From Psammoneis japonica (Eukaryota): a stretch of 64,000 bases of DNA. A program made the translations under genes and the position numbers. The notes under the pieces are model-generated. The model had not been told where the DNA came from. It saw only the letters and a list, made by a program, of their open reading frames with translations, and did no database searches. This document shows positions 8,567-56,520 of this stretch, one piece after another. The stretch lies in assembly GCA_008632985.1 (NCBI GenBank), contig QPGO01000294.1, positions 1-64,000 on the forward strand, in the 5' to 3' direction. Every line of letters starts with the position of its first letter. The stretch's first letter is position 1.

Positions 8567-8699
8567 TTCGTCCTTGTCTGTTTTTCAATGACATTGAACC
8601 CAACACTCAACAGCATGACGACTGGAGCCCCCAAAGACAGCGGGCTGTCTCCAACAAAAGAAAAGGAGGAGGAAAATGATTCGCGAAGGCTTCCCCGCG

Positions 8700-12794: not shown

Positions 12795-14840
12795 TCAGCA
12801 GACGCGATCTTTTCTTTGATTTTTGCTCGCAACAAAAATGACACGGGATTTTGCCGTGTAAAAAGAGCAAACAATGGATGTGCAGACAGACGATCCTTGA
12901 ATTTTGCTCGCAGCAAAACCAACACGGGCTTTTGCCGTGTAAAAAAGAGTGAACAATGGATGCACAGACAGACGATCCTCGAATTTTGCTCGCCAGCCAC
13001 TGCGTGAAAGAGGGGCCCATGAAGCCGCAGGCCCCAAGCACAACCGCTTTCCTTCAGTCCACTTGTTCACAACACCAAAAAAATTCTCTGCTCCATTTCC
13101 ATCTGACAGCCATGCAATGCGATCAATGTTGGACTTGTTCACTCTCTTCGTGATGACTTTTGTGAGAATTTTTCTTCCTTTGTTGGACACCTTCATCGTC
13201 GCTCCATGAAACCGAGCCTGTTTTTGACAGAGCTCACAAACCAGCTTGTCAAAATCACCTTTTGCAAGCGGCGTGGCATTTTCCAGTTCTAGCTGCACGC
13301 GAACACGTCGCTCCGCCTGGAGGCACTTGCAGTTTCGCAAATCACACAATCTGTGGTCTCCACAGTGGTGAGGAACAATTGCATCGAAGCCACGCAAGCA
13401 TCTGTCTCTTGCCTTGTCTTGCTGGTGCTTGAATGAAAACAGCAAGAGAAGTCTCTTCCACTTCTGCTTCACAGTCTCTCATGCACCTTTGCTGTGCCTG
13501 ACATGTTGCCACCGATTCTCATTAATCAAAAGAACGTGATGACAAAGGGACATGCGTCGAGAACAATCCGACACAATGGCCTCCATCCGTGGAGTCGAAA
13601 GACCCTTTTTGAACTCAGGGTTTTTTGATGCCAAAGTGAAAAAGCCGCTTTTCACCGTTTTTGTCATGTGCCCGCCATCAGGAAGCTGCTGTGAAAATCC
13701 CTCTGCCGTGTCTCCAACTATGTCGCGTTGCTCTTTGACAAATGCAACAATGCTTCGTGTGTCTCCGTCTGAGGTTATCTCACGAGGAAAAATGGCTAAG
13801 TCATCTGACCTGAAGTTGCCATCATCGTCCAACAGAAGCTCTCTTGCAAGTGCAATGTTAGCATGCTCTTCTGCCACCCCGGGGCCATACTTCGAGTTCC
13901 TAGAACACGAGCCTTCATGCGAGAAATCAATCTCGCCGGGAAGAATGTCGCCGTATCGTTTTTCAGGATGCTTTTCAAGGTAAGCGGTAACAACGCGGGA
14001 ACAAAGAGCACAACTAATTTGGTCTACAATTACAGCAAGTGGCTTGCCAGTCACTAAGCTAATGCAGACCAAGCAATGAAGCACGCCTTTCACTCGATGA
14101 CAGATCCACCGCATCGGTCCACCACCGTCGTTGTTTATCGGCCCCATTGCAAAGTTGTGATGCTTGCCATCTCGATCAGTAAATTGAAAATCACCCTCAT
14201 AATGTCTCTGCTTCCTGCTCTCTTCCACATGCTCTCTACGATTCTGAAGTAGTTGCTCCTTTGCCACAGGCAGCCCAACCTTCTTAATGCGTTTGAATTG
14301 CTCGTCGATTGCAGATTTGGGAGGGCACACCCCACCGAACCCCGCATAAAGCTCCTGCAGCTTTTCTCTTGAGACACCAGCATCAATGGAAGCCAATGCA
14401 ACAACAATTATATCTTCTGACACAAGTTGGCCTGATGGTTGCTGCACTTGTTCCGCCGGCCATCGCACCATTTCCTTCCGACAATACGAACAACGCCAAA
14501 CTTCTTTCAAGCCGAACGACAGGGTACTTCTAGCCACCAAGATTGCATCATGACCGCATTTTTGATTGTGATTAAAGACATCTTTCACCCACTCATCATC
14601 CATTTTGATGCTAGACTTCTTGTAGCCGGTCATGTTGTTACATGGGTCTGACGGATAATTTTCTTTGTTGTGGTCGTCGTCGGTGCTGGATCCGATTCTT
14701 CCGCTGTTGTGAGGAGTTGCAGCACAATTGTCACCCTTCTCTATGTCATGATTCAATCTAGAGCTTTTGCTCTTGGATGCATTATCTTCCACCTTAGAAC
14801 TCTTCTTGTCCGCAGTGCGAGTGTAACCGGCATTCTCCAA
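12795..14840 (-). mobile_element. Kolobok-like (Pfam 'Mutator-like') DDE transposase, interrupted by one in-frame TGA
   Basis: Motif order C..C, NDGGG, TGKPL...SCALC, H...C.RN, SDGDT, DGGH..K, HH.GDH..C and NGAENF. ORFs 13479-14840 and 12795-13472 are in the same frame. The true 3' end is probably near 13000. Confidence 0.7.
12821..12995. repeat. ~81-82-bp tandem repeat (about 2.1 copies) at the 3' end of the transposase; possibly subterminal repeats
   Basis: TTTTGCTCGC units start at 12821, 12902 and 12984; paralog at ~49044-49215. Confidence 0.85.
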
Positions 14841-15486
14841 TGCATTGTGTGCCTCTTGAAACAGTGTCTTATTCCGAATGAAGTAGTTTGGCCCAATCCT
14901 TGGAATGGTGACAAATGCATTATGCTGTTCTTTGTAACATTTGAAGCCATTTGCTTGAGGGCCACACTTATAGTAAGTATGATGAGCGCCGTTGTTGTTG
15001 AATCGGTCCCGTTCTACAGTGCGGCATCACGAGTCCCACGCATTGCATTCGTCACATCACAAAGAGGCAGTGATGGATAGCCACCACGCTTCAGAATTGC
15101 ATGTGTCATTGAGTTGTCCATCCAATATCCCTTGATGTTGGATGGAAGGTGGAGGAGCACTGTTGACACAGCGCCGCAAACGCCATTGTGATTCGTACTC
15201 ATTCTGAGATTTTTATGGCTTCTGGTAATCGTGGTATGCTCGTGTAGATTCCCACGAATTCCCCTCCGCGTAGCGTCAGTACAATTTTCTACGGAGTATA
15301 TCCGGGTTGCAGGTCCATTCGGAACCTTAAGCTGACGCACTTCAACTACTGTATAGTTCCTACGCACTTCTAAAACAGCACTTCTGGTCTAATCAAAATC
15401 TTTTCAGCCCTTTGGTTGTTGCAACTACTAGACTAGTTTCAATCAAATCACAGCTTAGTCGGCAAAAACGGCTAGCTATCAACGCA

Positions 15487-17604
15487 ATGGCGGAACAAGA
15501 TAGCTCGATGGATAAGAAAATCGTTGAAGGGTTTTGCCTATTATGGGAATTCAAATCCAACGGGAAGGTCAAACTCCAGAATGATCGGAATTTTCTGGAA
15601 GGAATCCTAGTTCGTGACAAAAGTGCTAGTACCAATAGCCAAAGAGACGAGAACCCCGACGCAAACCTCTTAGATTCCTATTCTCAGTTCCGACAGAGAA
15701 GGGCAAGAAGCTTGTTCGGTGAAATAGGTGAATTATTCGTTCATTACACCCTGTACTTGCCGCTCGCTTTGAGGGGCGAAGATCGCGACAGGGACATTGA
15801 AAAGATCAACTCAAGTCTCCGGACACAATTGTTCCACTTCTCTGCCTTTCGTTTCGGTTACGAACTTGGGAGTGGCAAGTTGGGATATGGAACGGGTAAA
15901 GTGCAGCTCGATACTGCAATCATGCGGCTTCATACGGTTATTCTGGTCCTCAATGGTACAGTCTTCCACATTTTGTTGATCACCCTTATTTGGGGCCTCA
16001 ACATCTACCATATCGTGCATTGGAAAGAATTTACGGATGCGTACAGGGTTACGAGTTCTGTGTTGCTAACACTCTTATATCTCTTTAGGCTCTTCGTGGT
16101 GCGACCGTTTCTTATTCAGCATAGCGCCTCTCAGCAATTCTTCTTCACGTTTAACGTCTGGACAATTTTGGGGCAACAGTGGTGCAAAATATATCATTCA
16201 AAACGTAAAGTCGTGCAAAATCCTATTCGAGTTAGTAAGCCGGTTTCTATCGCGGAAGCTGATGCATGGACACCCTACGAACAATTAACACCAAAGGATC
16301 CGAATCACTCCCACTGCATCTTTGTGTCGCATCGATGGAAGACGCCATCCAATCCTGATCCCGATGGAAGCGAACGTCGAGAACTATCCAAATATTGCAA
16401 AAATGTGCAATGTTTCCTCGACTACTTGATCGATCCAACTGCCGTCAACTACTGGGAGGGAAACAAGGACAATATCATTCCTGATATTTTCATTCGGATG
16501 CTGAGACGCTACCATCGATTCTGGTGCCTTTCTGATGACCATTTGCATCGCATGATATTTCATGTGTCTGGGCTAAATAATGAGCCTTATGCTGCAGCGA
16601 GCTTTTTTGCTCGACGTCAAAAGGAGGTACTGGTATGGTATGACTACCAGTCGGTTCCACAAGGGAGGGACGACCAATCACGCGAGATTCGTTCCAAATG
16701 TTTGGACGAGATTGAGTTCATTTGCCAGGAAATGACGATGCACATTGAGGGAAGTGTGGACTATCAGACGAGGGGCTGGTGTCTCTTCGAGATGTTGCAT
16801 GGAGTGATGGGGGATGTATCTAGATTGGAGGAAAGCAATTTGCTTCCTGGATTTCACGGTCACTTGTTTTTTCTTGCGATGCGGGTCTACATTAATCTCT
16901 GCGAGAGCCTCGAGAAGGAGGATCCCGAGAACTCCTCCGTAGTCCCCGACGTGGCCAACTTGTTACGAGAAATGAACATAGAATGCACCAATGGATCGGA
17001 CCTCGAGTTTCTCGCTGGACGTTTAACACGTCAAATCATTGTTCAGGGGCCGGCAAGAAAAGCGTACGAATTCGTAATTCACCCTCTACACACGGCCCGG
17101 ATGTTGTTTCGAATGGTAATTTTTTCTTCATGGCAAGATGGAAGTGTTGAACGCCCGAAGCTTGAAGCTGATTTCAATCGAATAGTGTGGCATTTCATGG
17201 GAAAATATGAGATGCCCCTAATTGGTGACGAGGAGTGGTCCGCTGGTATCCCATTTTATTCGACGCTTCGGAAGATGTCCCGGAGGTCGTTGCACATTGT
17301 GGACCGGGGCACAACGGTATATTTGAAATTTAACTATCCTGCTCAAGTTTTGTCTCACTACGTACAAACGAAACACGAAGATTTTTCTATTCCGGGATAC
17401 AGCGAGCAGGTACTTACGCTTTTAAACATCTTCAGGCGGATTAAGGAGTCGATGGGTTTGGAAACCCTAACCAAAACTTGGTGGCAACAGATAAAGAGGG
17501 GAGATGGCGAGGACTTAGATCAATTTCTGTCCAACATGTCATCGACGTGCTACTTATTGCGGGTCCAAGTTGGAATGCCCGATGATCGTGGTTTCACAGA
17601 ATAA
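15487..17604 (+). CDS. Intact ~705-aa protein with two predicted N-proximal TM helices and a HET-like (TIR-related) domain
   Basis: Uninterrupted ORF with normal Tyr use (about 27 Tyr). Hydrophobic segments HTVILVLNGTVFHILLITLIWGL and VLLTLLYLFRLFVV. Motifs FVSHRW....PDPDG, VWYDYQSVPQ, YQTRGWCLFE and CTNGSD. First ATG at 15487. Confidence 0.8.
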   Translation: MAEQDSSMDKKIVEGFCLLWEFKSNGKVKLQNDRNFLEGILVRDKSASTNSQRDENPDANLLDSYSQFRQRRARSLFGEIGELFVHYTLYLPLALRGEDRDRDIEKINSSLRTQLFHFSAFRFGYELGSGKLGYGTGKVQLDTAIMRLHTVILVLNGTVFHILLITLIWGLNIYHIVHWKEFTDAYRVTSSVLLTLLYLFRLFVVRPFLIQHSASQQFFFTFNVWTILGQQWCKIYHSKRKVVQNPIRVSKPVSIAEADAWTPYEQLTPKDPNHSHCIFVSHRWKTPSNPDPDGSERRELSKYCKNVQCFLDYLIDPTAVNYWEGNKDNIIPDIFIRMLRRYHRFWCLSDDHLHRMIFHVSGLNNEPYAAASFFARRQKEVLVWYDYQSVPQGRDDQSREIRSKCLDEIEFICQEMTMHIEGSVDYQTRGWCLFEMLHGVMGDVSRLEESNLLPGFHGHLFFLAMRVYINLCESLEKEDPENSSVVPDVANLLREMNIECTNGSDLEFLAGRLTRQIIVQGPARKAYEFVIHPLHTARMLFRMVIFSSWQDGSVERPKLEADFNRIVWHFMGKYEMPLIGDEEWSAGIPFYSTLRKMSRRSLHIVDRGTTVYLKFNYPAQVLSHYVQTKHEDFSIPGYSEQVLTLLNIFRRIKESMGLETLTKTWWQQIKRGDGEDLDQFLSNMSSTCYLLRVQVGMPDDRGFTE

Positions 17605-18797
17605 TAGTAGAACTTCATATCAATATGACTTCTCTGAAATTCGACTGAAAGATAAGAAAATGAGTTTTGTTCGCCTGCTAACTGTAACGACACGTGCTTA
17701 CAGAGGAGCCCATTCTCATTTCGCGAAGAGAAGATTACAGTCTTGAGGGGTCTACTGTTCGGGGTCCGCGCTTGGGATCGACTCCCAGCTGCGCGTCCGT
17801 CCGCCCCCACGAGTTGTCATCGCCCCTCTCGCTAGCCATCGATCTATCCCTAGCAGCTGGAAGACCAGCAATGGTCACAACAAACAGCCGTTTCGATTTC
17901 GTACGACCGAAGTCCCTCTCAATCATTTGTCACAACCGTTCGTCCATACATTTGCATGGTTTATACGATATCCACATAATTCGTTTGCATGCAGCACAAG
18001 AATTCTTCATTCATTCAGAGTGTCTCAAGCATTGTCAGCTCCTTGTCAAAATTGAGCAATGTGTTCCCCTCTGTCAACACCAATTTACAAGTAGAGTTGA
18101 CTCTCTCTGCGTAACTCTCCGCATTCAAGGCACCAATTTGAGCACATGATGAGCTAGCCACAAGGGGTAAAAATCCAAACTTCTTTTTGTTTCTCATCAC
18201 CTCCCAAGTCCCAACTGCATTCAGTGGTTGCTGCCCCACAATGCACAATCGATTTGCATTTTGCTGTCTCCACAGTGCCACGTGCTACAAGGTTTGCCAT
18301 GCAGTTAAGCATTTGTGGCACAGCCAACATCTGCAGCACCCTCAAAAATGTCACGATGCCACCTCGCCAGAGCATCCACCCACACATTCAATCCAGCTGG
18401 GAGAGAGAGAGACAAGCATGGCACAACAACCGATCCTGGTGACCTTTGATCCCCTGAAAAAACACTGTCATCATGCACAGCAAGAATGCCAAAAACCAAG
18501 ACAAAAGTGGAATTGCAAGCATCATGCTTGACATGGTGTGCACTGCTCCTGCAACCTCAAGAACCTGGCATTGCCGTGTGGCACAGTTGCATTGACAGGC
18601 ACTTTTGTTGCACCATGTTCAAGAAAGGGGTTGCTGCCAATTGAATGCAAAATCACATTGGTGAACCTCATCTTCTTGTCAAAGGGAAGGGGTTGCAGCC
18701 AACCACCTGTGAGTGTTGACCGTGAACCACATCTTCCAAAATTCACAGCTTGGGCAAACTCAACTTGCCAAAACTCGGATTGGTTTTTCCAGCAACC

Positions 18798-20968: not shown

Positions 20969-21364
20969 GACGCGTTCCAGCCCTGGGTGGGAGCTCGTAG
21001 CACTGACGTGTGACACAAATAATTTTTGTCATCCGTCGCATGTTTCGCATGCAGCTTTCTACGTGGGACATTTAAAAAAAATTGTCCAGACTCGCTGTTT
21101 TGCGAAGCCCCAGACGTTTTACATGACGAATTTATAGAAACAACAATGCGCCAGTTGCATTCTTCAATGTCTGAATGATGTAACTGGCTAAGTAAAAAAT
21201 GATGTACTTCAATCATGGGCGAGTTTGTGCGTTCGCAAAATTTTCTCATTTTCTGTTTGCGATCATTGACATTTTAATTGCCGTTTGATTTTAGTGCGGA
21301 GCTCGCACGTAGAAGTCCACGAGCCCAATGTCACACGGATTCCCACCTACGTCTGAAACGCATC
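20969..21364 (+). mobile_element. MITE family A, copy 1 (396 bp)
   Basis: Termini GACGCGTTCCAG...CTGAAACGCATC; 4-bp TSD GATG; empty site in the paralog near 49395. Confidence 0.92.
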
Positions 21365-22997
21365 GATGTTCCATCTCAAAGGCATGCTTTGGGAATGCCA
21401 TCAGCACACACGTCGCAATGAACAACAGAAAAGAAAAGCGCAGTGAGTCAGCAATGCAGTCAGCCAGCATGCATCGGAACGAACCACAGAAAAAACAATG
21501 CAGAGGTGGAGAGCACATTGATTGGTTGTTGCTCACGACGCATAACGATGTTCCACTGCTGCGCAGAACCCAACATTTGCCCTGCTCTTTTTCCCCCGAT
21601 TTGGTCATCTTCCGGGAAGACAGATGCCAGGATTTTGCCGGTGCCCTGATTTCCATCGCAAGGAAGTGCAGCGGTGCCTGGGACTTCTTGATGACTGCAT
21701 CATCAGAATGATCATGTTCAACGTGCAGTCGAGTCAGTCTCTGGCAACCGTTGCCGATTGGAGCATTTGATCTAAACTGCGACACAACAGAGGAAACAAT
21801 CAACCTTGTTTTGATCACTCTTTTGGAAACATTGCGGATGTCACTTTTCCTGTGTTTTAAGACAGCGGTCGTTTCAAGGAGCACCGCGTGGTGTCTTGTT
21901 TCAGTCCCCAAAGGCGGCAGCTCCACTGGGTCGGCGGTTGAGCATGCAAGCCAGGAAATGCATCCCCGGCAGTGGGAAGAGCAGTGGAATCCGTCAAAGA
22001 GAGACAGCACAGCTTTAGAATCGTCCAACAAAACACCTCTGGCGGGCGAATTCAGCCAAAAGGTCACGAAAAGCTCTGCCGGCATGCACTGTGCGACAGC
22101 TCATGGTGTTAAAAAGGAGGCAACCAAGACGTCCTTGACCTCTTGGAGAAGCCTGTTGGCTGCTCTGCTGCTGGTGCCACCAGCACCAGATGACTTTACA
22201 ACACGAAACATGACAAAAGTCGTCACCTTGTGCGCGTCACCATTTCCAGCACAATGAAATCCAAAGTGGCATCATTTGGAACAAAGAGTGGAGTCGAGTT
22301 GTTGTTGGCTTGATTCCAATTTGTGCGCCCAATGGATGCACCGTAACTGATGCTTCAACTCTGCTAGAGTCAGTGTCGTGCTGCTGCTGCTTGGGAACCA
22401 CCGCGATCCTAGAATGACACAAATTCCAACACCGAGTGAGGTGGTTGCACCCAATGGTTGTTGCGTGTTTTTGTTGCGCACTGCTGTGGCACACAACACA
22501 AAATTGGCAACAACAGCAGAATCTTCAATGGAGAACAACCAGATTTTTCTTTTGGCAATTGCACGACAAACTTTTTCGGCTGCTGCACTGTAGATCCCTG
22601 CTGCCGGCAGTCGGATGGAGACAGGCAGTTTGGCGACCAAACGGCATTTTGTGCCAGTGGTGCACTGCACAACATCTGTTTGCCCTCATCCATTTTAAGC
22701 TGCGATTTCATCACCAACTAGATCAAGAACGTCACCGCACCACTGCCATTCCTTCAGTGAATTTGGATGCAAGACATGAGACATGAGCATGTGCTGTTGC
22801 TGCAATTTGCTCTAGCTGTGCAGAGGGCATCGTGATCGTTCGAAAGGATGGCAGCGCACCCCACCATCAAAGTTGCGTTCACCATTGTTGAAACGTTCAA
22901 TGAACGATTTCACCTTGGCATGCTTTTCTGCGTTTGTCAGCATTGAATTTGCCTGCGTGTTTTCAATGCCAGGCTCCCCGCAGAAACACTGACCACC

Positions 22998-24718
22998 ATG
23001 GCGTCGTCTTCCGCCGCTGCTGGCAGCAATGCCGCCAATGCAAACAAAGACACCACTGCCGCTGATGACATCACTGTCGATCTAGCATCCCTTGAACCTT
23101 CATCCAAACTGAAAGAACGACAGTTTGAAGAGATTGCTGTCCATTTTGACATGCGTGGCCCAGAAGCGACTTGCAAGCCAATGGCCCTCGTCACTTCCCA
23201 TCTCCAAATTCTCAGTCAGATCCTTTTCACTTTTCACATCGAAGTTCAGATTCTGGACAACTGCAACACCAGAATTGCACACGTGAACGTTGCCGAATGG
23301 GCATCGACTCTCCAACACGAACATCATTTTCAGATTTCTGCGACTCGGAGCGGTGAGAATCGTCCGGTCACACACCGTTTGTGTCATCGTCTCCTTGCGA
23401 AAGTCCCCCTTTGCGACATTCGCTCTCATCCCAATGTTCAAAGCATTTTGGAGACAAACAATGCCGGTTTAAAACGTCATCATTGGAGTGAGTCCATCAT
23501 CAACATGGCTGGCCCGGCATGTTTTGTTGCCACTTCTTCCAAACATGCTCCCATCGACTCTGCAACCAAGTTGTTCCTCAAAGATCTTGGGGATTTAAAA
23601 ACCAAGATGCCGAAGTTCCGCCTTGCCCCCACTTCAGTCCGAGCAGACAACAACAAAACATCCGTCCCCATCCACGCCGTGACCTTTTCTGTTTGAAGTC
23701 CAACAAGATGATTGCTGCACTGCGGCGAAAACCCTGTTGTGTGCTTCCGAAAAGCTTCCGACTCATGTCCTCATGGCAAAAACTCGACACCTGTCTCCAC
23801 TCGCCTTTTACAATGCGGTTAAAACACAAGCCCAACGAAACAACAACACCTTTGTGGCGCCGTTGTTGCGTGCTTCTGTGGGTGTGATGTTCTTTTTTGG
23901 AAAACCACATCAAAGTGATTGAAGGTGTGATTGACATTTTTCCCTCCCCCAACGTGTCATCTGCCGGGCGTCACAATGTTCTGGTCAAACGAAATCATTT
24001 CAAAAAGGCTCAAACTGAGATTTCCACGTGCATTTTGAATGAGATCCCAAATGTTCCGAAAGATTCCCACCCGTCTCCTCCATTTGACGATCTCCATCAG
24101 GTGCCTGGTGTTTTTGACGAAGCTTCTGATGCTGGTGAATCCATCATGTTGGCTGGCATCCGCAGCTTGGAGTCACTCACTTTCTCCGACGTGTCTCCCT
24201 TGACCAACCAAGAAGCTCCTCGACTTGACCGACTTCCCACCCCTTCGTCTGGCAGAGGTCATGGTCGGTCCGCCATTCCCGGTCGCGGCGACTCAGCAGC
24301 ACGTCCCATTCCTCCTCAGACATTCACAAACCCACCATCTTTCCAAACTCCAAACTTCGGTCTAACTGGATGTCCCGGTGTCACGTCTCCGCAAGCGTCT
24401 TATGCCCAAATCGCTCAATCCTCATCGAGTTCTTCGATTGCTTCCGTTCAGTTTGCCGAGGTCCAGCGCACTGTGACCCAAATGCAAACCCGTCATGAAA
24501 AGGCCATTCGTGATCTGCGTGACAAGCACACACACGAACTGCAAACTGTGCAATCGCAACATGCAGCGAAACTGTCAGGCATGCAAGACCAGATGAATGA
24601 GGTCATTCAGTTGCTCCAAGCGTCTCAATCCGCTTCTTCAGAGAGTCCTGCGAGGAAACGGCAAAACCAAAATCAGACTCCCGATTGCAGTGACGATGGA
24701 AAAGACTCGGATTTTTAG
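22998..24718 (+). pseudogene. LINE ORF1 (frameshifted), with C-terminal coiled-coil-like region
   Basis: Consecutive ORFs 22998-23696, ~23700-23890 and 23897-24718 directly upstream of ORF2. Confidence 0.7.
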
Positions 24719-24726
24719 CACGGAGA

Positions 24727-27700
24727 TGGATCTCGCCGCCTCCATCTCCACAAACCATTGGGCGCCCTCCAGACATTCATCAGCAAATGTCTTCCCTGTC
24801 TCTTGCTCGCGTGTTCCGACGCACCAGCAAGAGTCGACCTTTCTTCCTCCAACACGGCTCCACTCCACTTCCTTGCTTTGAGCCCCAGTCTTCTCTTCGG
24901 AGGAGCACGGCCCAACCATGAGTGGCAACCCTTCTGCCGAGACCATTTCGGCGTGGCAATCTCTTTTAGACGGACGAAGTTGCCATCCACCGGCTGATCG
25001 ACGCATTGATTTCTCACGCTTGAAAACCAACGAACCCATCGGTGATGGCCTCAACCCCAAGCTGCCACACCACACCCGATCACACGCCTTCAACGCCAAT
25101 GGATGTAAGTTTGACAAACGAGGTGGTGACACAACCGAATGCTGCCAGGTGGCCAATGAAATCCAAGCCGACATTGTTGGCACATCTGAAGCATGTTTGG
25201 ATGCAACACAATGCGACATCTTGTCAGCATGCAGGTCTGCGGTTTCCAATTCCTTGTTGCACGGCAGAGGCACGTTCTCCACCAGCTCTGCTCCATTCAC
25301 TGCGCAGTGCAAACCAGGCGGAACTGCCCTGTTTTCTTGCAATTCAGTGTCAGCGCGGCATCGATCCCAACATTCTGATCCTCTCGGGCGATGGTCCATC
25401 CAGGTGTTTGACGGTCGCAATGGGAGACAAGCCATGTTCGCATCATGCCACAGAGTTTGTGCCAAGAACCAGCAACAACCAGGAAAAACCACCGCGTTTG
25501 CTCAACAACAATGCCTCCTCCGACGGAATGGCAACTCTGTTGCAGACCCACGGAAAGCATTTTGTACAGATTTAGCCCGTGTTCTCCAAGACTTTACAAC
25601 TGACTCCAACAGAGAAGTTACATTGTTTGGTGACTTCAGTGCGGATTTCGAATTCGACACCGATTCCTTGGCAAGCCCAGCACAACGATTCAATTTTTCG
25701 GACGCATTCTTCAATCTCATTGGCAATGCCAATTTTTCCACATGCACCCGTGGATCCAAACGCCTTGACTTCATTCTTGCTTTGCCGGGAGCATTGTCAG
25801 CAGTCAGATTTGGAGGGTGCGAAGCCTTTGGATGTCACATCACTTCTGACCACAGAGCTTGTCACGTGGACTTCGACACGGCAGCATTGTTTGGGAACCC
25901 CACAGTTGATTTACCTGAAGCATGCTTTCAAGACATTCAGGCTTCCTTGAAACCCCACGTCACAGCTTGCTTGAAATCCATTGGTCCCATGTTGGAAAGC
26001 CGCTCAGTGTTGGAAAGGACAACATGGCTTTTAGCGCTCAACGAACCCAATCATGAGCTGGCAGAGCGATTGGATCATGACATCTTACAGTTTTCCTTGT
26101 CTGCGGCCAAACACTGCAGGCGACATCGAGAACCCGACTGGTCAGTGGAGCTGTCGGACCTTCGCCATTGCGCCTGCATTTTCTCCAGAGTGGTTTCCAT
26201 GATGCGCACCAAAATTGATTGTGTGTCTCAGATTCAACGGATTTGGGACAAACTCAAAGGTTCCTTCATCATTCCTGAGACTCTCCAAGAATGTGTGGCT
26301 GCCCTGCAAGAAGCTCAATCAGATTGTAAAAGGTTGGCAGCAGGCAGTGTTGTTCATTGGGAGAGAGAAATGTTGACTGAAATCACCACCCTTGACTTGG
26401 AAGGAACCAAACAGTCCCGAAAGCAAGCTTCAATCCTTTGCAATGTTCGAAAAGCAGAAGAGATGGCACGTCTTTTCAAGAAGATCAAATCATGCAAAGC
26501 AGAGCGTGACACTGGCATCAACAGCGTACAAGTTCCAAGGAACCCAAACACACATCCTAAAGAATGTGACGACTGGATTGCTCTCGATGCACCAGAAGAC
26601 GTCGCTGCTGCTCTTCGCACTCGGAATCAGAAACATTTTGGACAGGCTCAAGGAACCCCTCCGACCGCACCTCCTTTGTCCGTGGACCTTGGATTCACCG
26701 GCGATGCTGTCATGGCGGAACTTGTGTTAGACGGTGACTGTGACACTTCATCTCTCAATGAGGCTGCCGCTCAATTGATCGCATGTTCAAAACGGGCGAT
26801 CTCCTGTTTCAGTGTCGAATGAATTGACCGAAGCAGAGTCAGAGGGCAAAATCAAAGGTTGGAAGGAGTCTACCTCTGCGTCTCTGCACTCTGGTTTACA
26901 TTTGGGACATTGGAAAGCTGTGCACGCGCCTCATCAATTCTCGGATGCTCCTGTTTTGGACAATGAAGACGACTCCGAATGCACTGCTTTGGACAACATC
27001 CAACAGACTTTGATCCAAATTTGCCTCAACCTCCTTAATTGTGCTTTGCGGTGGGGTTGTTCCTTTGACCGTTGGAAGGACATGGTCAACGTGATGATTT
27101 TCAAAGAACCTGGCAACAACAAGATTCGCCGCCTGCGTGCAATTCACATCTACAAAGCCGACTTTCAGCTTGTTGCTGGCGTCAAGTGGAGAGCTCTAGC
27201 TCAAAACATGGAACATCAACGGTCATGCAATCCCGGCATTTACGGCACTCGTCCCTTTCTCAATGCCCATGCCCCGGTTTGTCTTTGAGGAACTCATGCT
27301 CGAGACCAGTCGAGCATCTCGCAAGTCAACTGTCACCAGCAACGACGATTGCACGTCATGTTTTGACAGGAACATTCCCGCTTTGGTCACTGTCCAGAAC
27401 CGCAGCAATGGCGTGCCCAAGAAAGTCACCCAAGTCGCCAACACCACGCTTCACAAAGCTCGCCACTGGTTGAAAACCGTTCTCGGATTATCTCCAACGT
27501 CCTGTTCCCACTCTGAGGAGTTGCCTGTTCTCGGGACGGGGCAAGGCAGTGGTGGATCGTCATTCGATTGGAACCAAATCTGCAACAGCCTCTTTGACAT
27601 CTTCGATCGTCATGCTCACGGCGCGTTTTTCGAAACCCCTGACAGAACAACGTCTGTGCGAATGTTTTGGCCAAGGCTGTGTTTGACAACACTTCCAAAC

Positions 27701-30700
27701 AAGCCAACAATTTTTGCTCATCTCCCCAGCCTTGTGTGCTTGAACTCGCTTTCAAAATGCAAGAGGACAATCAATTGTGGTGCAATCTCTTGAACGCCGC
27801 AGGTCACGAACTGGAGCTGCCCAAATGTTCATTCCACGCCATCGAATGGATGTTTACAGATGATGGTGAGCCTTGTCTCAGACCTTGCAACGATGAACTC
27901 ATGATCGAGATCGCATCTGCCGACAGGACCACGAGTTGACAGAGCAAACAGCTGTCTGCACACTCCTCCCACAAAACCTTGGGCACCTGCAAGGCTCCTG
28001 TCGGCAGCCAGAAGACGCAACATTCGGCGCTTAAGAAGAAAAGTGACGACATTGCCATGTTCCTCCGCTCTTGCCCTTTGGACCGTCACAAAGCTTGGAC
28101 CCATTGCTTTGCGTGTTGCTTGTCTTCCATGACTTGCGTTCTTCCAAACACTCATTTTCTTCCCAAGGAACCATTGGAAATGCAGCAAAAGGCAGTGCGC
28201 ATTGTCGTCGCTAAATGCGGACACAATCGGAACATGAAACGCGATGTCTTGTTTGGACCCCACTCTTCAGGTGGAGGAGGTTTTCGTTCATTGGATGTTG
28301 AGCAAGGTGTCGCTCAAGTGCCACAGTTTTTACGACACTGGCAAGGATCAGGCCAACCACAAGCCATGTCTCAGATTGCCATCTCTTGGGTTCAATTTCA
28401 TCTTGGCACAGGAGTCAGTTTCCTCTGGGACGTGACTTCGAAACTGCCTCATGCAGAGTCAAAATGGTTCATGTCCATGCGGTCTTTTCTTGCAAGAGTG
28501 AATGCACACATCGATTTTGACAACACCGGCGTCCTTCCATTGCAGAGAGACAACGATCAGTGTGTCATGGATGTGGTTTTGGACTCGGGAGTTTTTAACG
28601 ATCGGGAGGTCAGGTGGGCAAATTGCTGCAGATTGCATCTCAACGTTCTCACTGTCTCAGATGTTGCTCTCCCGGACAGTCGGTCTCTCGATCGGCGTGC
28701 ATTGGAGGGCAACCGTTCTCTTTTCAGTGGTGTGTCAAAGTTGAACCCAGTGGAACAACAGTGCCCGTCTGCGTGTGCATGGAAACAATGGAAGAGATTT
28801 TGCTCCCTCTCATGTGTGGACAATGCTGCGACTCTCAAAGGTCCTCCAGGACAGTGGGTTGTCTCATCTCTGGACATGCGAATGTCTTGCCTGGTGCACT
28901 GCGAACCGGACAAACAACACTTGTGCATTCGCACCGACTCCGGTTTTCAAGTTTTCCCTTTACGAAACAACTGTGCGGACTCAGTCTCAGAGCCAGAAAC
29001 ATTGCACGATTTGTCTCCATCAGCTGCCCCTGCATTGGCAACCACTGTGGAAGATGGCCGGTGGAGATTGGCTTTGTCCGTTTCTCCCATTGCGATTGCT
29101 GCACAACCCATGGCTCCGAACGACTTCATGACGATGTTGCAGCCCCTGCCCAAATGGGAAGCTTCGTCATTTGCCAACATCTCATTGCACAGATCCATCT
29201 TCGAAATTGCAGACTGTTTGAGAACATCACGAGCTTCTGTGGGCAGCGATGGATCGGTCATTGAATTTTGTGGGACCTTTGGCTGGACATTGACAGTTTC
29301 AGGTGTCCCTTTGGTGGATTGCGCTGGCCCCGTGTTTGGTTTTTGTCCTTCGTCTTATCGGGCAGAGGCATGTGGCATTTTGTCTGTGCTGCGGTTCATT
29401 TTTCGGACAATGGAATGTTGCCAATCAACATTCCCTCTTGGTCTGGACATTCATTGCGACAACTCTTCGTCATTCCGACACGTTTTGGACTTTGCAGCCT
29501 TGCCACCGTTGCCTGACGATCTTGACGAATCCAACCGAGTTCGTGACTGTCACCAACGTCATCATCTGGCAAACACTTTGTCATCAGAATGGGATTTGCC
29601 ACATGAAACATGTGACGCGTTCCAGCCCTGTGTGGGAGCTCGCAGTGCTGACGTGTGACACAAACAATTTTCATCATCCATCGTACGTTTCGCACGCAGC
29701 TTTCTACGTGTGACATTTAAAAAAAATTGTCCAGACTTGCTGTTTTGCGAAGCCCCAGACGTTTTATGCAACGAATTTGTGGAAACAACAATGCGCCAAT
29801 TGCATTCTTCAATGTCTGAAGAATGCAGCTGGCTGAGCAAACAATGATGTGCTTCAATCATGGGCGAGTTTGTGCGTTCGCAAAATTGCCTCATTTTCTG
29901 TTGGCGATCATTGACACTTTAATTGCCGCACAGTTTTACTGCGGAGCTCGCACACAGAAGTCTGCGGGCCCAATGTCACACGGATTCCCACCTGCGTCTG
30001 GAACGCGTCACACAAATCGACTTGTGAGATGTCGAGTTTCTCTTTCGGTGAATCAACCGGAACACCAGCGGCATTTTGTTGGGTGAAAGGCCATCAAGAC
30101 AATGACGCACCTCTCGATTCTCTTTCGTTGCCAGCCAAATTGAGTGTCCGAGCAGACATGTTAGCGGGTCGACACCATGGTCACTTTTCAGGAGACGTGC
30201 TGGTGGCGCCAAGAACCCCTCATTGTTTGGCGAATTTAGTTGTCCAAAATGCAACAGTGAACTCGAATTTCAAGTCTGCCCTTCGTTTCGAAGCATCAAG
30301 TCCAGCCCTCATCAAGTGCATGAAAGACAAGCATGGTTGGACGGACTTGGCATGTGAGTCTGTCGATTGGACAGTGCACTCCAAATTAATGTCACGGAAC
30401 ATCAGACGAAAGGTGAGCACTGTCAAGTTGGTGCAAGATTTGCTTCCTGCTAACAAGATCGTGCACCGGCACAATCCTGTACGACCCAATTGCTGCACTC
30501 ACTGCCAACACCCAAAGGAAGACCGTGACCACATTCTGCGCTGTCCTCACAACGAAGAGTGGTGCAGAAAGTTTTTACAAGGCTTGCGGAAGAAGTGCGA
30601 CGACATCCACACATCACCTTCCATCCGTGATTTGATCATTTCATCTGTCGAGTCGTGGTTCCGCAAAGAAATCATGTGTTCCGATGGGCTGCATCGGAGT

Positions 30701-31150
30701 GCAGCAGCAACACTTCGATCCCAGGATGCCATCAGTTGGAGACATCTCTTCAGTGGACGCTTTTCCCGAGAATGGAACGTGGCGCAACGAGCTTGCTTGT
30801 CATCTGGTGGATTGCATCAGGATCTTTCGGACAAAGAAAAGCGCTTGGACTGGGCAGCAACGATTGGGAACCACATTTGGGAACAATGGTGGGATTTGTG
30901 AGATTCTCACAACGATGCTGTGCATGGCCATGATTCGGACACTGGGAAGTCTTCTCAGCGATGAGACGCCAAAGCAGAGGTTCGGGCCATTCACTCAAAA
31001 TCGGACGAATGTCTTGCAAAGGACAGGGCTCAACTTTTTGACTCAGTCAATGATCACCTCACACATTCAACCCATCGCCTTCGGAATTGGTTAGCTGTGG
31101 TAAAACCAATGTTCAAGTCGAGCATGAAAGAGGCCAAGCGCCTTGCTCTG
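24727..31150 (+). pseudogene. LINE ORF2: AP endonuclease, RT, RNase H, CCHC finger (disrupted, MITE inserted)
   Basis: APE: N.NG, KPGGT, DPLGRW, GDF, RLDFI, SDHR. RT: KEPGN.KI.RLR.I, GTGQGS. RNase H: SDGS, SYRAEA[C]G, [C]DN, WVKGHQD. Finger: C..C....EDRDH...C. Confidence 0.9.
29614..30009 (+). mobile_element. MITE family A, copy 2 (396 bp), inserted in the LINE RNase H
   Basis: Termini GACGCGTTCCAG...CTGGAACGCGTC; colinear with 20969-21364; flanks ATGT/ACAC (inferred mutated ATAT TSD). Confidence 0.92.
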
Positions 31151-34100
31151 CGCGGCACATGAATGATCGCTGGTCACTTCGGCGTGGCATCGTCTGTGGA
31201 CGATGCCGATCTTGGCCAATTGCCACACACTCCTGCCGCACTGTCAGTGTGCTGGGAGTGTGGGTTAGCTTGTTGCCGGAGTTGCGGGGCGGAAGCGCAG
31301 CAGCACTTTAAAGATGGAATTTTGGTTTTGATTTCACCTTGGCATGAAGCTCCTCTGATGAGGTCTTGGGTGCCCAGGAAAAGATGTGCTGCGAAAAGTG
31401 CTGACTCCAAAAAATGACGTTGTGGATTTCATCAATTGGCGCTGTGGTGAATGTGCGCAAAGCAATGTTGAAAAAGAGCACACAGTGGCAGTGGCCATTC
31501 AGCGGGGCTGTGATGCAGCACTCATTCACTCACTCCAACATGGGACATGGTGAGCCATTGCAATGGAATCCTTGACACAGAACATGACCCTCTTTGTGAG
31601 AATGGTGAGGACGGAATTCTCGGCGTCAGATCTTCCAAAACGATCCATCAAGGCAAAGAAATGTGCACAACCTGTGATCTGTACATTGACTGTGGAGATG
31701 TGGTGACTGTTGGGGTGTGGCTGAATCCCCAGCTCTGGATCTTTCCCAGTCAAGGTGTTTGCTTCAAAGTGGAAGGGTGCTGTGACGAAAGCAAAGAATT
31801 TGAACTTGACGTTTGGTTGGAAGTGGAGCCTGAGCACCCAGGAAAGGATGCACTTGGATTGCCAGAAAAAAGTCTTTTTCTTCAGCAGCATCTCAAGGAA
31901 TTTGAAGAAAAGAGGGATTCACACCTCAAGGCTGGAGGATGTTTTACAAAATGCAGCTCTTCAATGCAAAATCAGACGCAACAGAAGCTGTGCTTGAGTG
32001 GTTGGAGGAACGCGACAACAAGCTGCAAGGTGTTTTAAAGCTCCGCCTCACTGCAACTTGTCTCTTGAGGAGATTCACAAGCGGAAGAAATTTCTGGATC
32101 CCTGTGGCATGGAAATGCTCAGACGAGATTGTTGAATGACTTGTGGGTGAACAGGTTGACAAGGTCGGAGGACTGTCTTTGCTGACAGCAGCATTGGAGC
32201 TGGCTTGGTGGCTTGTCATGCCCTGGATGAGGCAGGACTCGTTTGCAAATGTCTTGACATCAACAATGCAGTCAAGACAAAGAACAAGAAGATTGCGTGG
32301 TGTCAACTGGGGGATGCCACAAACGAAGAAAAACAAAGGCCTCATTTGTCAGTGCTTCACTTTGAGCATGCAGCTGGACCAAACCTTCAGACAGAATGCC
32401 ATGAAATGATTCTGCTTTTGCCCCTTTACTTTGGAGAGGGAGGCACAACCAGCGATGCTGTCTTGGATGCCAGCACAGAATGGCAGGCCATTGGGAGAGT
32501 GTTTGGACCCGGACAGAGCAGCCCGGTTGTCAATCTCTTCAGGATTAAAGTTCGTGGTCCCAACGATGAAGAGTGCCTTGATGGTCAGCCAATTTGCCAA
32601 AACACTGACGAGGAGACAATCGTGATGGCAATCAATGCTGGGGATGAATGAAGATCATGTGGTGTTTGCTGCAATTGTTCTCAGTCAGTGTTGATCTGTT
32701 TGGCGCTTGCTTGTTCCTCCTTCTGATGCTTCAGATGAAGTCCTTCCTCAAATCATTGTTGTCCAAGTTGACTCTGCCCAGCCTTGTTGCCTGGAACCAC
32801 ACACAAAGAGAACATCATTTGAGAAACATCCAGACTTGTTTGGTCTGCTGCAACTTAGAAACAACTGGCTGCCTCAACACTGCATCTGTTGTGTGCAAAG
32901 TGTCAATCTTGACAACAAACTGGGTTTTGCAGAAATGTTGCTGGGAGAAGAATGTGCCCAAAGCCAGCAACTCCAGCTGCTGTGGTGTGCATTCAGAGTC
33001 AAAAGAGCAGACAGCTGGGGGGGGGGGATTGTCAAAAATCTAACTGCAGCAGGGTCTCCACATCTTTCAGCTTGATCTGTGGACAGCCAATGGCCTCCCC
33101 CTGCAGAAGTCCCCTTCGCACACTTTTGCAGGATTGGATGCTGGTGTGCTGATGGCTCAGATTTGCTCAAGCACAGGCTTTTCCCCAGAGAGCCACCTGC
33201 TGCCAGCATTGTCACATTTTGAAGAGTTTTTGCCACACCATTGATTGAGTGCCAAAAGAGTGAAGAGGAAACAAAAATCTCCAATGCCAAGGATCAGGCA
33301 ACACATTTTCAGGCACCCCCCTGGCAGATGACTTGATGCACCCAGACATGACTTGCCCATGAGATCGTTCATTTTGCTGCAACGAGGCCCCACATGCACC
33401 ATTGCTCAGCAAGCCATGCCCTCTGCTTGCAAAAGAAAAATGTCCCTGCACACACCAGTGCAAAAGCAAATGTGATGGATTTGAAACACAGGTGTGAACA
33501 GCACACAATCAAGCAAAGGCAATTCATTGAAGAAGCCAACCGTTTTTTTGTTCTGCAGCTTGTCAAGACTCACAATCAAGGCCTCTGTTCTTGGCACAAT
33601 TGCCGCACCAAACACAGAGACAGGACAGCCCCAATTGTCAGCATGCAGAGCTGCACTCACCTGCATTGGAGCCACATGTTCTCCCACACAACAATGAAAA
33701 AAAATTTGAGAAAGACAGTCACCATGTGCTTCTTTGAGAATGTGCTGACATGGCTTTGTGAACAAGCCACTGCAGGTTGTGCTCAGAAAAACACCCCTCT
33801 GCCTGACAGATTGGTGGCTTGCATTTGTCACAGATCAAGCCAAAAATGGAAGTCCACAACTTGGACATCATGCACCACTTTGCCAGCTCTGCATCCTTGC
33901 ATTTTTAGAGCAAACAGTGTTGCAGCATGGCCAGGGTTGGTGGGGTTTCAAGTTTGGGTCAGGGGACAGAGAGTGGAAATTTTGTGGCAAAACTTGAAGC
34001 ATGTGTGTGACCAAGCAAGATTCCATCTAAAAAGTCAGTCTGTGACATGACCAAGTTAATCTGCTGTGAGGAGCCAGCACGCAAAATGCTTGCCACAGGT

Positions 34101-36153
34101 GGCATGGTGCCAACAAGAACAACAACGCCATCAACACAGGCTCCCATGCTAAGAAATGTGTTGTTTCTTTTGCTCAGAGCACTGCTCCAATGTTTTCCAT
34201 CACTCCCATTGATTGCACAACAACTCCTTTGAAACACAAGAGCTTCCTTCCTCCAAAATGATGCAGCCACCTGAGTTGATGCACTCATGTCCAGTGCCAT
34301 GGTTGCTGCAAGCGCCTGCCCCTCCAATGACTCCCTGGTGTCATGTTCCCATTGACTGAATGACCATGTGGCTCTTCTGAAACACAACAGCTTCTGCCTC
34401 TGAAACAACATTGCAGCTGCCAGAACTGAAGCACTCATGCCTCCCACAGATGCCAGCACAAGCCCGCCCCTCCAATGTCTTGCAGCCATGGCATTGGCGC
34501 CTGTCCACTGCAGCTCAAAGGTGGTGTTGAAAACATTCCAAGAAAGACACACAACATGCATTGCAAGGAGCAAGAACCTCATGCTGAGCTCCAGCCATCA
34601 AGCTGTCTTCATCCATCTTGACATTCAAAGTCCAGCCAGTGCTGCATGCTGTGAGCTGAGTGAACCACTGTTGCTGGTGCTGGAAGCACCAGAGACAAAC
34701 AAGCTGAAACACAGTCACATGTGCTGGCACTGTTTCACCTGAAAAAAGGACAGAGATTGCACATGAGCATGCCCCACTGGCAATCAACAGACTGCACCCA
34801 AGACTCAACTGGCAGCTGGAACGTCATGATTCAGCAGCGTGGTTGCGAGTGAATCTGGATGGAGAGCCATGTTGCAATTGGTGATTGGTCAACATGTGTG
34901 AGTTGAGTGGTGCTGCAGCAACCCGCTCACAATCCAATCAGGTTTGGGCTCGCATTGACAGTGTTGCCACTTTCCATTGGACGCAAGGTGTTGCACTTGT
35001 TCTTTCGTTGCAGCTGTAGAAACGGCGCTGAACTGCATGCGATGCGTCAGAATTCGGATTGATGCACACGAAGATGCGTCTCGTGTTGCTTGTTGTGATG
35101 TCCACAAAACAGCTTGCAATGGCAACACTTGCAATGACAGTCACTGTCCTCACATGTGTGATGGGTGTGAGGGGACTGCGGCGTTGGGCGACATGCCCGA
35201 GCGTGTGCTCAACAATGTCGGTTGACATGAACGACACAGGGCTGATCACCCTGACGTTGGGTGGCTGTGTGAACCCGTCATCACAACACAGAGAAAGTGC
35301 AGCCACCATGACCATGCAGACTCACAGCTGTGTGTCCCTGATGCGGGACCTTTGCACCCTTTCTTTGTCACAGGATGGCAGCAGCGGCAGCACCAGCAGC
35401 AGCACTTGTGGCACCAGCTGCAGCAGCTGACGTTGACGCAGTTTTGCAAGTTTGTGGTGTTGCTGACCAGAACGCAAGGGCAAGGTTGGTTTTCTGCGAA
35501 GGGTTCGCGACTTTGGAAAACATCGCAGTGATGGAGAGTGACCATGATGTGGAAGATGTGGCGCAGAGGGCATCTCGTCGCACGGTGGCCGACGGATGCG
35601 TGACTCTCGGGACTGTTCAGATCAAGAACTTGCAGGCGCTAGCATGGCGGTGCCAGGATTTGCTCAAATGGAGTCAGCCATTGGTCGCGGCAGACTTCAA
35701 TGCAGAAGCTGTGGCTGTGGCCCGGGATGGCAGGCACATTGAAAAGGAGCGCACGGACTTGGATGCGTCGGCAAGTGGCCTCGTGAAGTTCAAGCCTGAT
35801 GATTTTGATGTGTGCGAAGACGCTTTCTTGAATCTCCTGGCACAGAAGTTTGGCCTGTTGAAAGAGCCCCTTCGCCATGTGGCAAGGACGATGCCAGCTC
35901 TGGCTGCATTCACGGACACCCAACAACAGCGCATGCACCAGACACCTTTGAATGGTGCCGCATGTGACGAGGACAACCGCAGCGTTTGTCGCATGTTGAA
36001 GGAACACTTGGTTGACATGGCAGGATGGGCATGGATCAAACCATTTAATGCAACAGAAGATGGACGTGGAGCATTCAACGCGTGGGTTGACCATTGCAAC
36101 AGACAGGGCGAGTTGAGCAAGTGCACTCATCTGGCTGTGGCAACTGTTGAAAC

Positions 36154-36719
36154 GACGTGTTCCAGTCCCAGGTGACACACAAAACGACAATCGATTTTGA
36201 ACATAAATTGTGTGTCTCTCAGTGTGTGAAGCATTTTCACATAAAATGCTCAGGCGGATTGGCTTTTACAGGCATCTGGAGCATGAATGATTGTGAAGAA
36301 TTAAACAGTTTTTTGTGGGGTGTTGAATTCCTCATGGGATGTGCATCACAAACTTCCTCAGTGGACTGAGTGCTGATTGCACGTCCGCACTCTTTCTACA
36401 GAAATTTCTTTGTAAGCAGCAAACACACGAAAAAGCATCGCAGCAAGGCACATTTAGTCAACGTCCAAACAACGGCAATGATTTCGCCGAAAATCATCCG
36501 TTGTGTCATGACTCGTTTGTCGCAATGAAAAACATTGATGGCACAATGACAATGACTTTGCAACACTCACACGAGTCTTGTCAGTGTTGCAAAACATTAG
36601 AATTTTAGCAAGTCTATGCTTTTGGTGGTGAAAAACCGTTCGCAAGTCAGAGACCGCGCAAAAATTGCGCAAATGTCGTTTTTGTGCACGATTTGGGTCA
36701 CGTGCGGCTGGAACACGTC
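36154..36719 (+). mobile_element. MITE family B (566 bp) inserted in gag
   Basis: Perfect 12-bp TIR GACGTGTTCCAG/CTGGAACACGTC; 4-bp TSD AAAC; gag resumes afterwards (TLFYKKE). Confidence 0.9.
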
Positions 36720-37878: not shown

Positions 37879-38275
37879 GACGAGTTCCAATCCCAGGTGG
37901 GACTCCGTGTGACATTGGGCCCGCAGCATCCTGCGTGCGAGCTCTGTGTTAAAATCATTGATCAATTTAAATGCAAATGATCGCCAACAGAAAAAGAGGC
38001 AATTTTACGAACGTGTCTCCTCCTTCACACTTGCAGCACATGAATGACAGTTTTCATGGGTGTGTTCTACAGACATTAAAGAACACACCCAGTGCATTTT
38101 CATTGTCACAAATGTTGAAAATAGAAAGCCTTTGGCTTCGCAAAATGGGAAGCATGAAACAATTTCATAGAATGTCACACGCAGCCATCTACGTGCGCGA
38201 CATGCGGCGCGATCCAAAAAACTGTTGATGTCACAGTTCAGCACTGCGAGGTCCCACCTAGAGCTGGAACGCATC
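37879..38275 (-). mobile_element. MITE family A-related (397 bp), reverse orientation, inserted in the copia protease region
   Basis: Reverse complement starts GATGCGTTCCAGCTCTAGGTGGGAC; TSD TCGT; empty site at ~57380. Confidence 0.9.
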
Positions 38276-49737: not shown

Positions 49738-49950
49738 TGCGATTCGTTTGTCGCAATGAAAAACATTGATGGCACGACAACAATGATTTTGCAACACTCA
49801 CACGAGTCTTGTCAGTGTTGCAAAACATTAGAATTTGAGCAAATCTGTGCTTTTGGTGGTGAAAAACCGTTCGCAAGTCAGAGACCGCGCAAAAATCGCG
49901 CAAATGTCGTTTTTGTGCACGATTTGGGTCACGTGCGGCTGGAACACGTC
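49738..49950 (+). mobile_element. MITE family B right-hand fragment after a single-N scaffold join
   Basis: Matches ~36505-36719 and ends CTGGAACACGTC; N at 49737. Confidence 0.8.
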
Positions 49951-56320: not shown

Positions 56321-56520
56321 NNNNNNNNNNNNNNNNNNNNNNNNNNNNNNNNNNNNNNNNNNNNNNNNNNNNNNNNNNNNNNNNNNNNNNNNNNNNNNNN
56401 NNNNNNNNNNNNNNNNNNNNNNNNNNNNNNNNNNNNNNNNNNNNNNNNNNNNNNNNNNNNNNNNNNNNNNNNNNNNNNNNNNNNNNNNNNNNNNNNNNNN
56501 NNNNNNNNNNNNNNNNNNNN
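56321..56520. other. Assembly gap (200 N)
   Basis: Run of N. Confidence 1.

Follow-up and report, generated by a model that had tools for sequence, protein, structure and literature searches.

A target-site duplication mutated in opposite directions and the recurrent loss of TpA from silent repeats of the diatom Psammoneis japonica

The window analysed here is a stretch of 64,000 nucleotides of the diatom Psammoneis japonica (positions 1 to 64,000, forward strand, of contig QPGO01000294.1, assembly GCA_008632985.1), in which a miniature inverted-repeat transposable element (MITE) lies inside a dead long interspersed nuclear element (LINE). The two copies of the 4-bp target-site duplication (TSD) of this MITE differ, with ATGT at the left end and ACAC at the right end, which raises the question of whether one target was mutated in opposite directions after the insertion, and by what process. 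The reading that we favour, and hold to be likely, is that a TpA-specific mutator changing A:T to G:C hit both TSD copies independently once the MITE was in place. The best reading of the wider data is a recurrent mutator acting at the DNA level, which converts TpA to TpG or CpA in silent repeat domains, on both strands and site by site. CpG also decays in these domains, at a slower pace, and a gene island is spared.

The focal insertion and its ancestral target site

The MITE (29614..30009, + strand) belongs to a 396-bp family, family A, and has 12-bp terminal inverted repeats (TIRs), of which the left (29614..29625, + strand, GACGCGTTCCAG) is matched perfectly by the right (29998..30009, - strand). 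Its length, its TIRs, a fixed 4-bp TSD and 308 matches in the genome agree with its assignment as a MITE. Alternative ends, with a TIR starting TGTGAC and a 2-bp TA duplication, were ruled out, as the family copies end in GAC/GTC and have 4-bp TSDs. In the left TSD copy (29610..29613, + strand) the central TA is read as TG, an A>G change on the + strand, and in the right copy (30010..30013, + strand) it is read as CA, an A>G change on the - strand; the last base of the right copy, C, comes from a second TA>CA change or is ancestral. Within the MITE, 24 of the 30 ancestral TpA sites were converted (12 to TG and 12 to CA), six are retained as TA, and three CpG were lost.

The initial annotation had set this discordance against the perfect 4-bp TSDs of three sister MITEs in the window, a contrast that we can confirm. 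These sisters belong to related families of 396, 566 and 397 bp. The family A sister (20969..21364, + strand) has a GATG TSD and 15 remaining TpA, and its site is empty in the duplicated part of the window, near 49394. The 566-bp element (36154..36719, + strand) has an AAAC TSD, which reads AAAT in its duplicate at 56135 through CpG decay at the junction, and the 397-bp element (37879..38275, - strand) has a TCGT TSD, nine TpA and 71% identity to the focal MITE. When the left and right flanks of the focal MITE were aligned (MAFFT) with eight MITE-free LINE copies, they overlapped by exactly the four TSD columns. ATGT/ACAC is a true 4-bp duplication with three of its four positions now different, and since 161 of 184 family TSDs are perfect and the background divergence of the MITE family at non-TpA, non-CpG sites is about 1% per site, the three differences are not due to chance.

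The host LINE (22923..31329, + strand) is full-length, with approximately 8.0 kb excluding the MITE, and has a TpA observed/expected ratio (O/E) of 0.09 and a CpG O/E of 0.79. It is bounded by a 17-bp TSD, with identical copies at 22906..22922 and 31330..31346 (both + strand) that contain no TpA, and the site is empty in the duplicate near 51249-51263. The mutated open reading frames (ORFs) of the LINE in the window gave no Pfam match themselves; eight of ten long relatives have Pfam matches to APE endonuclease and reverse transcriptase (RT) domains, which together with the long TSD and the lack of long terminal repeats agrees with a LINE. The MITE splits a putative RNase H-like region of the ORF (29242..30170, + strand; GSDGS...RAE...CDN...WVKGHQD), in which D-E-D and H motifs are visible at the insertion site. 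This assignment was made by eye, and Pfam and PDB searches gave no RNase H call for the LINE region around the MITE. Word-indexed protein searches returned one and no matches, the named relatives of the LINE, and those of a housekeeping gene, are mostly from diatoms, and a literature search on the name of the LINE clade found no paper.

The TSD taken alone is equally explained by a target ACGT, through CpG decay, or by ATAC, and only the empty homologues exclude ACGT. A DNA search with the LINE gave 21 matches, from which the eight other copies covering the MITE site were aligned. Their empty sites read ATGT, GCAT, ACAC, GTGC, GCAC, GTGC, ACAC and CTGC, so that the central pair is TG in four and CA in four, and CG or TA in none. 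As 88% of the CpG in the MITEs survive and the LINE has kept most of its expected CpG, the absence of CG from all eight copies makes a CG origin very unlikely, and the pair was TA. This bears out the claim of the initial annotation that the MITE inserted first and each TSD copy then mutated on its own: the homologous site is TA-derived and the changes are opposite.

The reading frame adds to this reconstruction. At 29606..29610 (+ strand) a Glu codon is followed by a first TpA-derived pair (29609-29610, now CA), which belongs to a conserved Ile codon. The corresponding pair is CA in three, TG in four and TC in one of the empty copies, which fits Ile, and of the 92 relatives (among 151) that the motif matched, 78 have Ile here. 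The Tyr position is variable (Tyr in four of the 92), and the proteins of the relatives leave Tyr unfixed. The next codon is CAR (Gln) in seven of the eight empty copies and CAT in one, with AAA (Lys) private to the focal copy. The family protein context is E-I-Y-Q, and the target site reconstructed from these alignments is ATAY. Of the earlier proposal that ATAT restores E-I-Y-K-S, the TA-derived site and the Ile stand, the Lys does not represent the family, and ATAT itself is favoured without being proven.

Mutation spectrum and timing across the MITE family

A TIR pattern search of the 91-Mb genome gave the 308 matches, from two families of approximately 390 bp (A and B). We took 185 copies (184 distinct), comprising the 30 best DNA matches, the first 51 listed by the pattern search and copies chosen for a change at one TpA site. 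The full set is consequently enriched for mutated copies, and the selected TpA site was excluded from the rate fits and from the count of young copies and kept in the overall spectrum. The ancestral state was defined by the copies with at least 27 TpA. After 17 copies with more than six transversions (hybrids, misoriented or diverged) were dropped, 167 were analysed.

In these 167 copies, adenine changed to G at 2,580 of 9,745 positions preceded by T (26.5% per strand), compared with 96 of 11,133 preceded by A, 53 of 6,776 preceded by C and 23 of 6,504 preceded by G. The other adenines changed at 0.35-0.9%, so the effect at TpA is approximately 30-75 times stronger. Transitions make up 2,580 of the 2,615 changes of TpA adenines (99%), with 35 transversions. 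CpG changed to TpG at 397 of 8,569 positions, transversions overall reached 0.02-0.3%, and TpA loss amounts to 52-57% against 11-12% for CpG. The two directions are balanced, with 794 TG and 815 CA in family A, 715 and 578 in family B, and 1,509 and 1,393 in the 184 copies combined. The variance of strand coordination was 0.95 and 1.03 (expected 1), indicating no strand-coordinated tracts, and pairwise sharing of mutations among 62 and 51 heavily mutated copies equalled that of simulated independence, with no sharing by descent. Class II elements move without an RNA stage. This property, together with the balanced directions, the missing strand coordination and the missing sharing by descent, means that each MITE copy was mutated in place. 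In the LINE, the focal copy and its nearest sister share 125 TpA-derived sites at which both are mutated, and at 39 of these the changes run in opposite directions. Among the TSDs of the sister LINEs, those of L201 (approximately 630-645 and 8650-8666) end in CA and TG, in opposite directions and of TA or CG origin; L200 is ambiguous, L198 has one non-TpA mismatch, and L196 and L197 are perfect.

Across the window the TpA O/E per kb is 0.02-0.25, with TG and CA raised, except at 14-18 kb. The spared gene island (14001..18000) serves as an internal control and has a near-normal O/E of 0.49-0.67, to be compared with 0.45-0.6 at housekeeping loci of the genome. At the edge of the island, 13479-15026 (- strand) has a weak match to a Mutator-like transposase (E 1.8e-5), below the cut-off.

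The surroundings of the MITEs show when they arrived. The flanks of the first 51 listed copies have a median TpA O/E of 0.06, and only three exceed 0.35. Six of 179 TSDs are of TpA origin; targets that had not been erased would give approximately 17 (p 0.003), and erased targets 3.5. From the erased flanks of TA-rich copies and the few TpA-origin TSDs it follows that most MITEs landed in DNA already erased, and that few, the focal one among them, hit a site still bearing TpA. In the 44 youngest copies, 80 of 1,207 TpA were lost, against 15 of 6,431 other A/T transitions (p 3e-31) and 11 of 1,119 CpG, some of which changes could be shared by descent. As a side observation, 48 of the 51 first-listed copies have a flank O/E of at most 0.35, and nine of 365 flanks (L023-L195) exceed 0.4. 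This near-exclusive location in erased DNA suggests that the family inserts preferentially into silent domains or that selection is strong elsewhere.

The duplication within the window gives a second measure of time. The segment 31330..34830 (partner 51249-54909) has six sites with opposite TG/CA directions in 3.5 kb and was already poor in TpA and CpG before the duplication, whereas 21364..22920 (partner 49394-51263), with 20 opposite sites in approximately 1.6 kb, was erased mainly afterwards. The segment 35009-36339 has 15 opposite sites relative to its duplicate, and its transversion counts are of the same order as those of the other segments. The nesting and the empty sites in the duplicate place the duplication before the LINE and the LINE before the MITE, and the differing counts of opposite sites indicate one round of mutation before the duplication and another after the focal MITE. 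The process acted at more than one time. The initial annotation had proposed the order duplication, LINE, MITE, mutation, which the nesting supports and which omits the round before the duplication. Its claim of a recurrent mutator is likewise correct in substance, on the strength of the young copies in erased flanks and the erasure before the duplication; a single TSD gives one time point. The observation is real and the dating right, and recurrence is proven by evidence other than the single TSD. Since TpA loss follows CpG loss across copies (rho 0.56 and 0.71) and barely follows other changes (0.17 and 0.16, not significant), the data are compatible with a continuous or an episodic process.

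Several further observations concern the window and the MITE junctions. Both 31330-35000 and 51249-54900 are depleted in TpA and CpG (CpG O/E down to 0.04-0.09) and form the oldest-looking layer of the window. CpG arises at the TIR junctions when a MITE inserts and decays afterwards (left C>T in four of 46, right G>A in seven of 51, with one and no changes in the reverse direction), so that junction CpG decay forms a second post-insertion clock. The region 38275-41900 and its copies contain relics of Copia-type RT (RVT_2) and other repeats, tandem and nested, whose pairwise differences are mostly TpA- and CpG-type transitions. An assembly gap of 200 N (56321-56520) interrupts the duplicate of the 566-bp MITE, and a single N stands at 49737, at the start of a partial MITE (49741-49950).

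Chemistry and competing explanations

Under the favoured reading, the LINE copy would still have had its TpA at this site when a cut-and-paste MITE inserted there, duplicating ATAT or, less likely, ATAC. The mutator would then have hit the + strand at the left TSD and the - strand at the right one. As for the chemistry, a TadA/ADAT- or ADAR-like enzyme may deaminate A to hypoxanthine where repeat domains are silent and CpG-methylated. An adenine deaminase fits the near-pure transitions and the strict 5' T, and we give this candidate chemistry about an even chance. The TpA sites differ in rate by over two orders of magnitude. Where the changed A is followed by a pyrimidine (C or T at +1), the median rates are 0.39-0.55, compared with 0.04-0.07 otherwise (Kruskal-Wallis p 6e-5), and TAAA/TTAA contexts resist mutation. 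The non-TpA adenines show the same +1 preference (1.1-1.4% vs 0.14-0.22%) at approximately 1/30 of the TpA rate. In genomic DNA, engineered TadA-derived editors leave A>G/T>C changes at TA motifs (PMC13225742), and CG methylation of transposable element islands in diatoms is described in PMC9998398. Such methylation would be consistent with the CpG decay seen here and with chromatin-guided targeting.

Some points weigh against this reading. The ancestral 4-mer is reconstructed rather than seen, for all eight empty copies are themselves mutated, and a search for an unmutated LINE copy met only erased ones, at all 20 other loci that matched (O/E 0.02-0.16) and in the LINE portions of 12 longer stretches. 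The fourth position is C in six of the eight empty copies and junction CpG decay is known from four of 46 comparable TSDs, which leaves room for ATAC. No de novo mutation was observed; all data come from one assembly. TpA is palindromic, so A-directed and T-directed chemistry leave the same footprint, and a site's rates on the + and - strands are correlated (rho 0.69), which points to a property of the site or duplex and not purely to a single-strand motif. Lastly, the deaminases in the genome are TadA-, ADAT2-, dCMP-, guanine-deaminase- and RibD-like, plus two A_deamin genes, and none is implicated. We take most of them to be ordinary housekeeping types, with labels given from motifs. The ADAT2-like gene lies at L213, and its presence is uninformative since ADAT2 is universal according to the preprint of Mettrop et al. 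(bioRxiv 10.64898/2026.01.13.699255).

Other genes were noted in the same survey. The two A_deamin genes (ADAT1/ADAR-type) are separate (L217:1112-2649 and L218:503-2216), and the second is a possible extra paralogue. At L212:313-1785 (- strand) a zinc-dependent deaminase domain shares one open frame with a DIOX_N/2OG-Fe(II) oxygenase. The genome also has 27 matches to C5-methyltransferases (L221-L230), among them TpA-erased copies (L226-L228, O/E 0.03-0.15), which indicates that duplicated host-type genes are erased too.

The first alternative, which we consider rather unlikely, keeps the process otherwise the same and puts the lesion on thymine (an oxidised T pairing with G, for instance), at the TpA of silent chromatin. 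Modified thymines occur in protist repeats, and the symmetry of TpA would let the motif be read equally as purine-T*-A; the correlation of + and - rates also speaks for it. Other adenines mutate at a graded, low rate and show the +1 preference too, which resembles the leakiness of a deaminase and weighs against a thymine lesion without excluding it. The genome has no Tet_JBP match, a weak point as the search control was also without any match.

An ATAC target would leave the dating unchanged. The central TA would have changed oppositely as before, and CpG decay, with the adjoining G of the TIR, would have turned the left C into T, also in three steps, for which the C at position 4 of most empty copies and the observed frequency of left C>T changes provide precedent. 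From ATAT, one A>G is needed on the left and two T>C on the right, the second enabled by the private C>A in the next codon. The fourth position is T in the two nearest copies, which differ by 39 of 1,099 and 74 of 1,185 transversions, all others differing by at least 8%. ATAC is therefore unlikely, and ATAT is, by our judgement of these alignments, about four times likelier.

It is improbable that error-prone repair synthesis (polymerase-eta-like) around deaminated 5-methylcytosine mutated the nearby A:T pairs. The correlated loss of TpA and CpG speaks for it, and in family A mutations of TpA are slightly more frequent close to a mutated CpG (p 0.04). However, family B lacks this proximity effect (p 0.34), and no short-range clustering of TpA mutations in the MITE copies was significant. 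The nearly exclusive transitions, with a 30-fold lower rate after A, are unlike the spectrum of polymerase eta, and TpA loss far exceeds CpG loss.

A single past episode, now ended, with TA-rich MITEs inserted later, is very improbable. The TpA counts of the first 51 listed copies are indeed bimodal (32 copies with at least 25, six with 13-24 and 13 with at most 12). The young copies in erased flanks already have a 14-fold TpA-specific excess, though, and one segment was erased before the duplication while the focal MITE was mutated after it; the deficit of TpA-origin TSDs tells against a single episode as well.

Ordinary CpG decay of an ACGT site, by C>T on the left and G>A on the right, is hardly credible for the focal TSD. 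CG can yield such TG/CA discordance, and of the 23 discordant TSDs (five that look rearranged and were dropped, the focal one, two with TA>TG at L093 and L186, 11 of CpG type and four others) it explains 11 of the other 17 interpretable ones. Against it stand the eight empty copies without CG, and a Tyr content of 0.2% in these LINE copies compared with 3.5% in relatives from other sources. Of 151 such relatives, one has less than 1.2% Tyr. This is a weak hint that saturating erasure may be restricted to the lineage, with called proteins biased to intact copies.

A-to-I editing at an RNA stage, or error in reverse transcription, of a LINE transcript carrying the MITE is just as poorly credible, even though the focal MITE does sit inside a retroelement. 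The focal copy is balanced between TG and CA, the genome-wide copies are balanced without strand coordination, and the sister LINE copies have no MITE at the site. The claim that the process acts on chromosomal DNA is upheld by these both-strand data; it is the MITE family that excludes RNA-stage and reverse-transcription effects, which a single TSD cannot do. That modified bases in repeats misled the base calling or the assembly is a negligible possibility: no piece of a read contig bridging a MITE junction was shown, while contigs of a public run, possibly the source of the assembly, match 27900-28053 and 28044-29337 in four pieces with no other letters, none are listed at the TSDs, double TA>CG changes are rare (14 in all) and TA-intact copies occur in erased flanks. 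A second run gave no matching piece, and the stretch occurs in no run of another study.

Relation to known systems and implications

The favoured reading, of a DNA-level TpA mutator, can be compared with several known processes. ADAR/APOBEC editing of retroelements acts on RNA or cDNA, on one strand, before integration. The process described here would share with it a hypermutation of mobile elements of the deaminase type, and differs in affecting both strands, after integration, DNA transposons included, and without one-strand clusters.

The repeat-induced point mutation (RIP) of ascomycetes is likewise a dinucleotide-specific transition hypermutation of chromosomal repeats, post-insertion, that spares genes; it takes place before meiosis, depends on RID/DNMT4 and responds to homology among repeats. 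RIP, however, makes TpA from CpA, whereas the process here removes TpA, and its defining C:G>T:A change at CpA is absent as a signature (C>T at 22 of 6,773 CpA). Unlike in RIP, many high-copy MITEs are almost unmutated; the 32 near-intact copies among the 51 first listed of a family of approximately 300 may reflect age. The TadA-derived adenine base editors (PMC13225742) share the A>G/T>C changes and the TA-motif preference, a resemblance of signature only; they are engineered and not repeat-targeted.

The closest match is the TpA hypermutation of integrated DNA of nucleocytoplasmic large DNA viruses (NCLDV) as well as virophages in Bigelowiella natans (Mettrop et al., bioRxiv 10.64898/2026.01.13.699255). 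According to this preprint, mutation-accumulation lines acquired it de novo at two regions of viral DNA, of which the NCLDV one is single-copy, with a rate raised approximately 1000-fold in some lines only. TpA depletion is mild (rho 0.45), RT and DDE domains are enriched among TpA-poor coding sequences, and an ADAT2-like deaminase is proposed, not shown. Both processes consist almost only of A:T>G:C transitions centred on TpA (here 26.5% vs 0.35-0.86%, a strong and not an absolute preference), on both strands of chromosomal DNA, and are local to foreign or silent DNA with host genes spared, as the island is here. In contrast to B. natans, the present case is a diatom, and erasure is near-saturating (O/E approximately 0.1) across LINE, MITE and other repeats. 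It is also dated by nested insertions, with the +1 pyrimidine preference and the low adenine leakage measured and CpG decay alongside. A literature search, from which subscription papers mostly lay outside, found no report of a TpA process in diatoms and no match other than the B. natans preprint.

One alga has been reported to undergo targeted A:T>G:C mutation of its chromosomal DNA, in viral inserts, where mutation of TpA at the DNA level was already shown. Here the process is near-saturating, affects DNA transposons as well as retroelements, is datable and is still visible in young copies. The focal TSD is one datum, and its value lies in the wider proof. The loss of about half of the TpA sites, against a background of about 1%, distorts the dating of transposable elements; dead ORFs seem open once their TAA/TAG stops are removed, and domain searches miss elements that the process has altered.

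Nothing indicates that mutated MITE copies spread further, and we lean towards the view that the mutator works as a genome defence. A bolder proposal, held tentatively and judged slightly less probable than its contrary, is a dedicated, chromatin-guided DNA adenine-editing defence in diatoms, a reverse RIP that would rewrite T-A-(C/T) in silenced repeats until TpA is gone. Such a system would amount to an adenine base editor that acts naturally on the genome, perhaps common to diatoms and Rhizaria by way of the ancestor of SAR (stramenopiles, alveolates and Rhizaria), and the MITE family in the edited domains would serve as its built-in clock. If the process is enzyme-driven, P. japonica would possess an enzyme that naturally edits adenine in DNA, at a motif that can be measured, and mutational genome defence would have a second, independent form.

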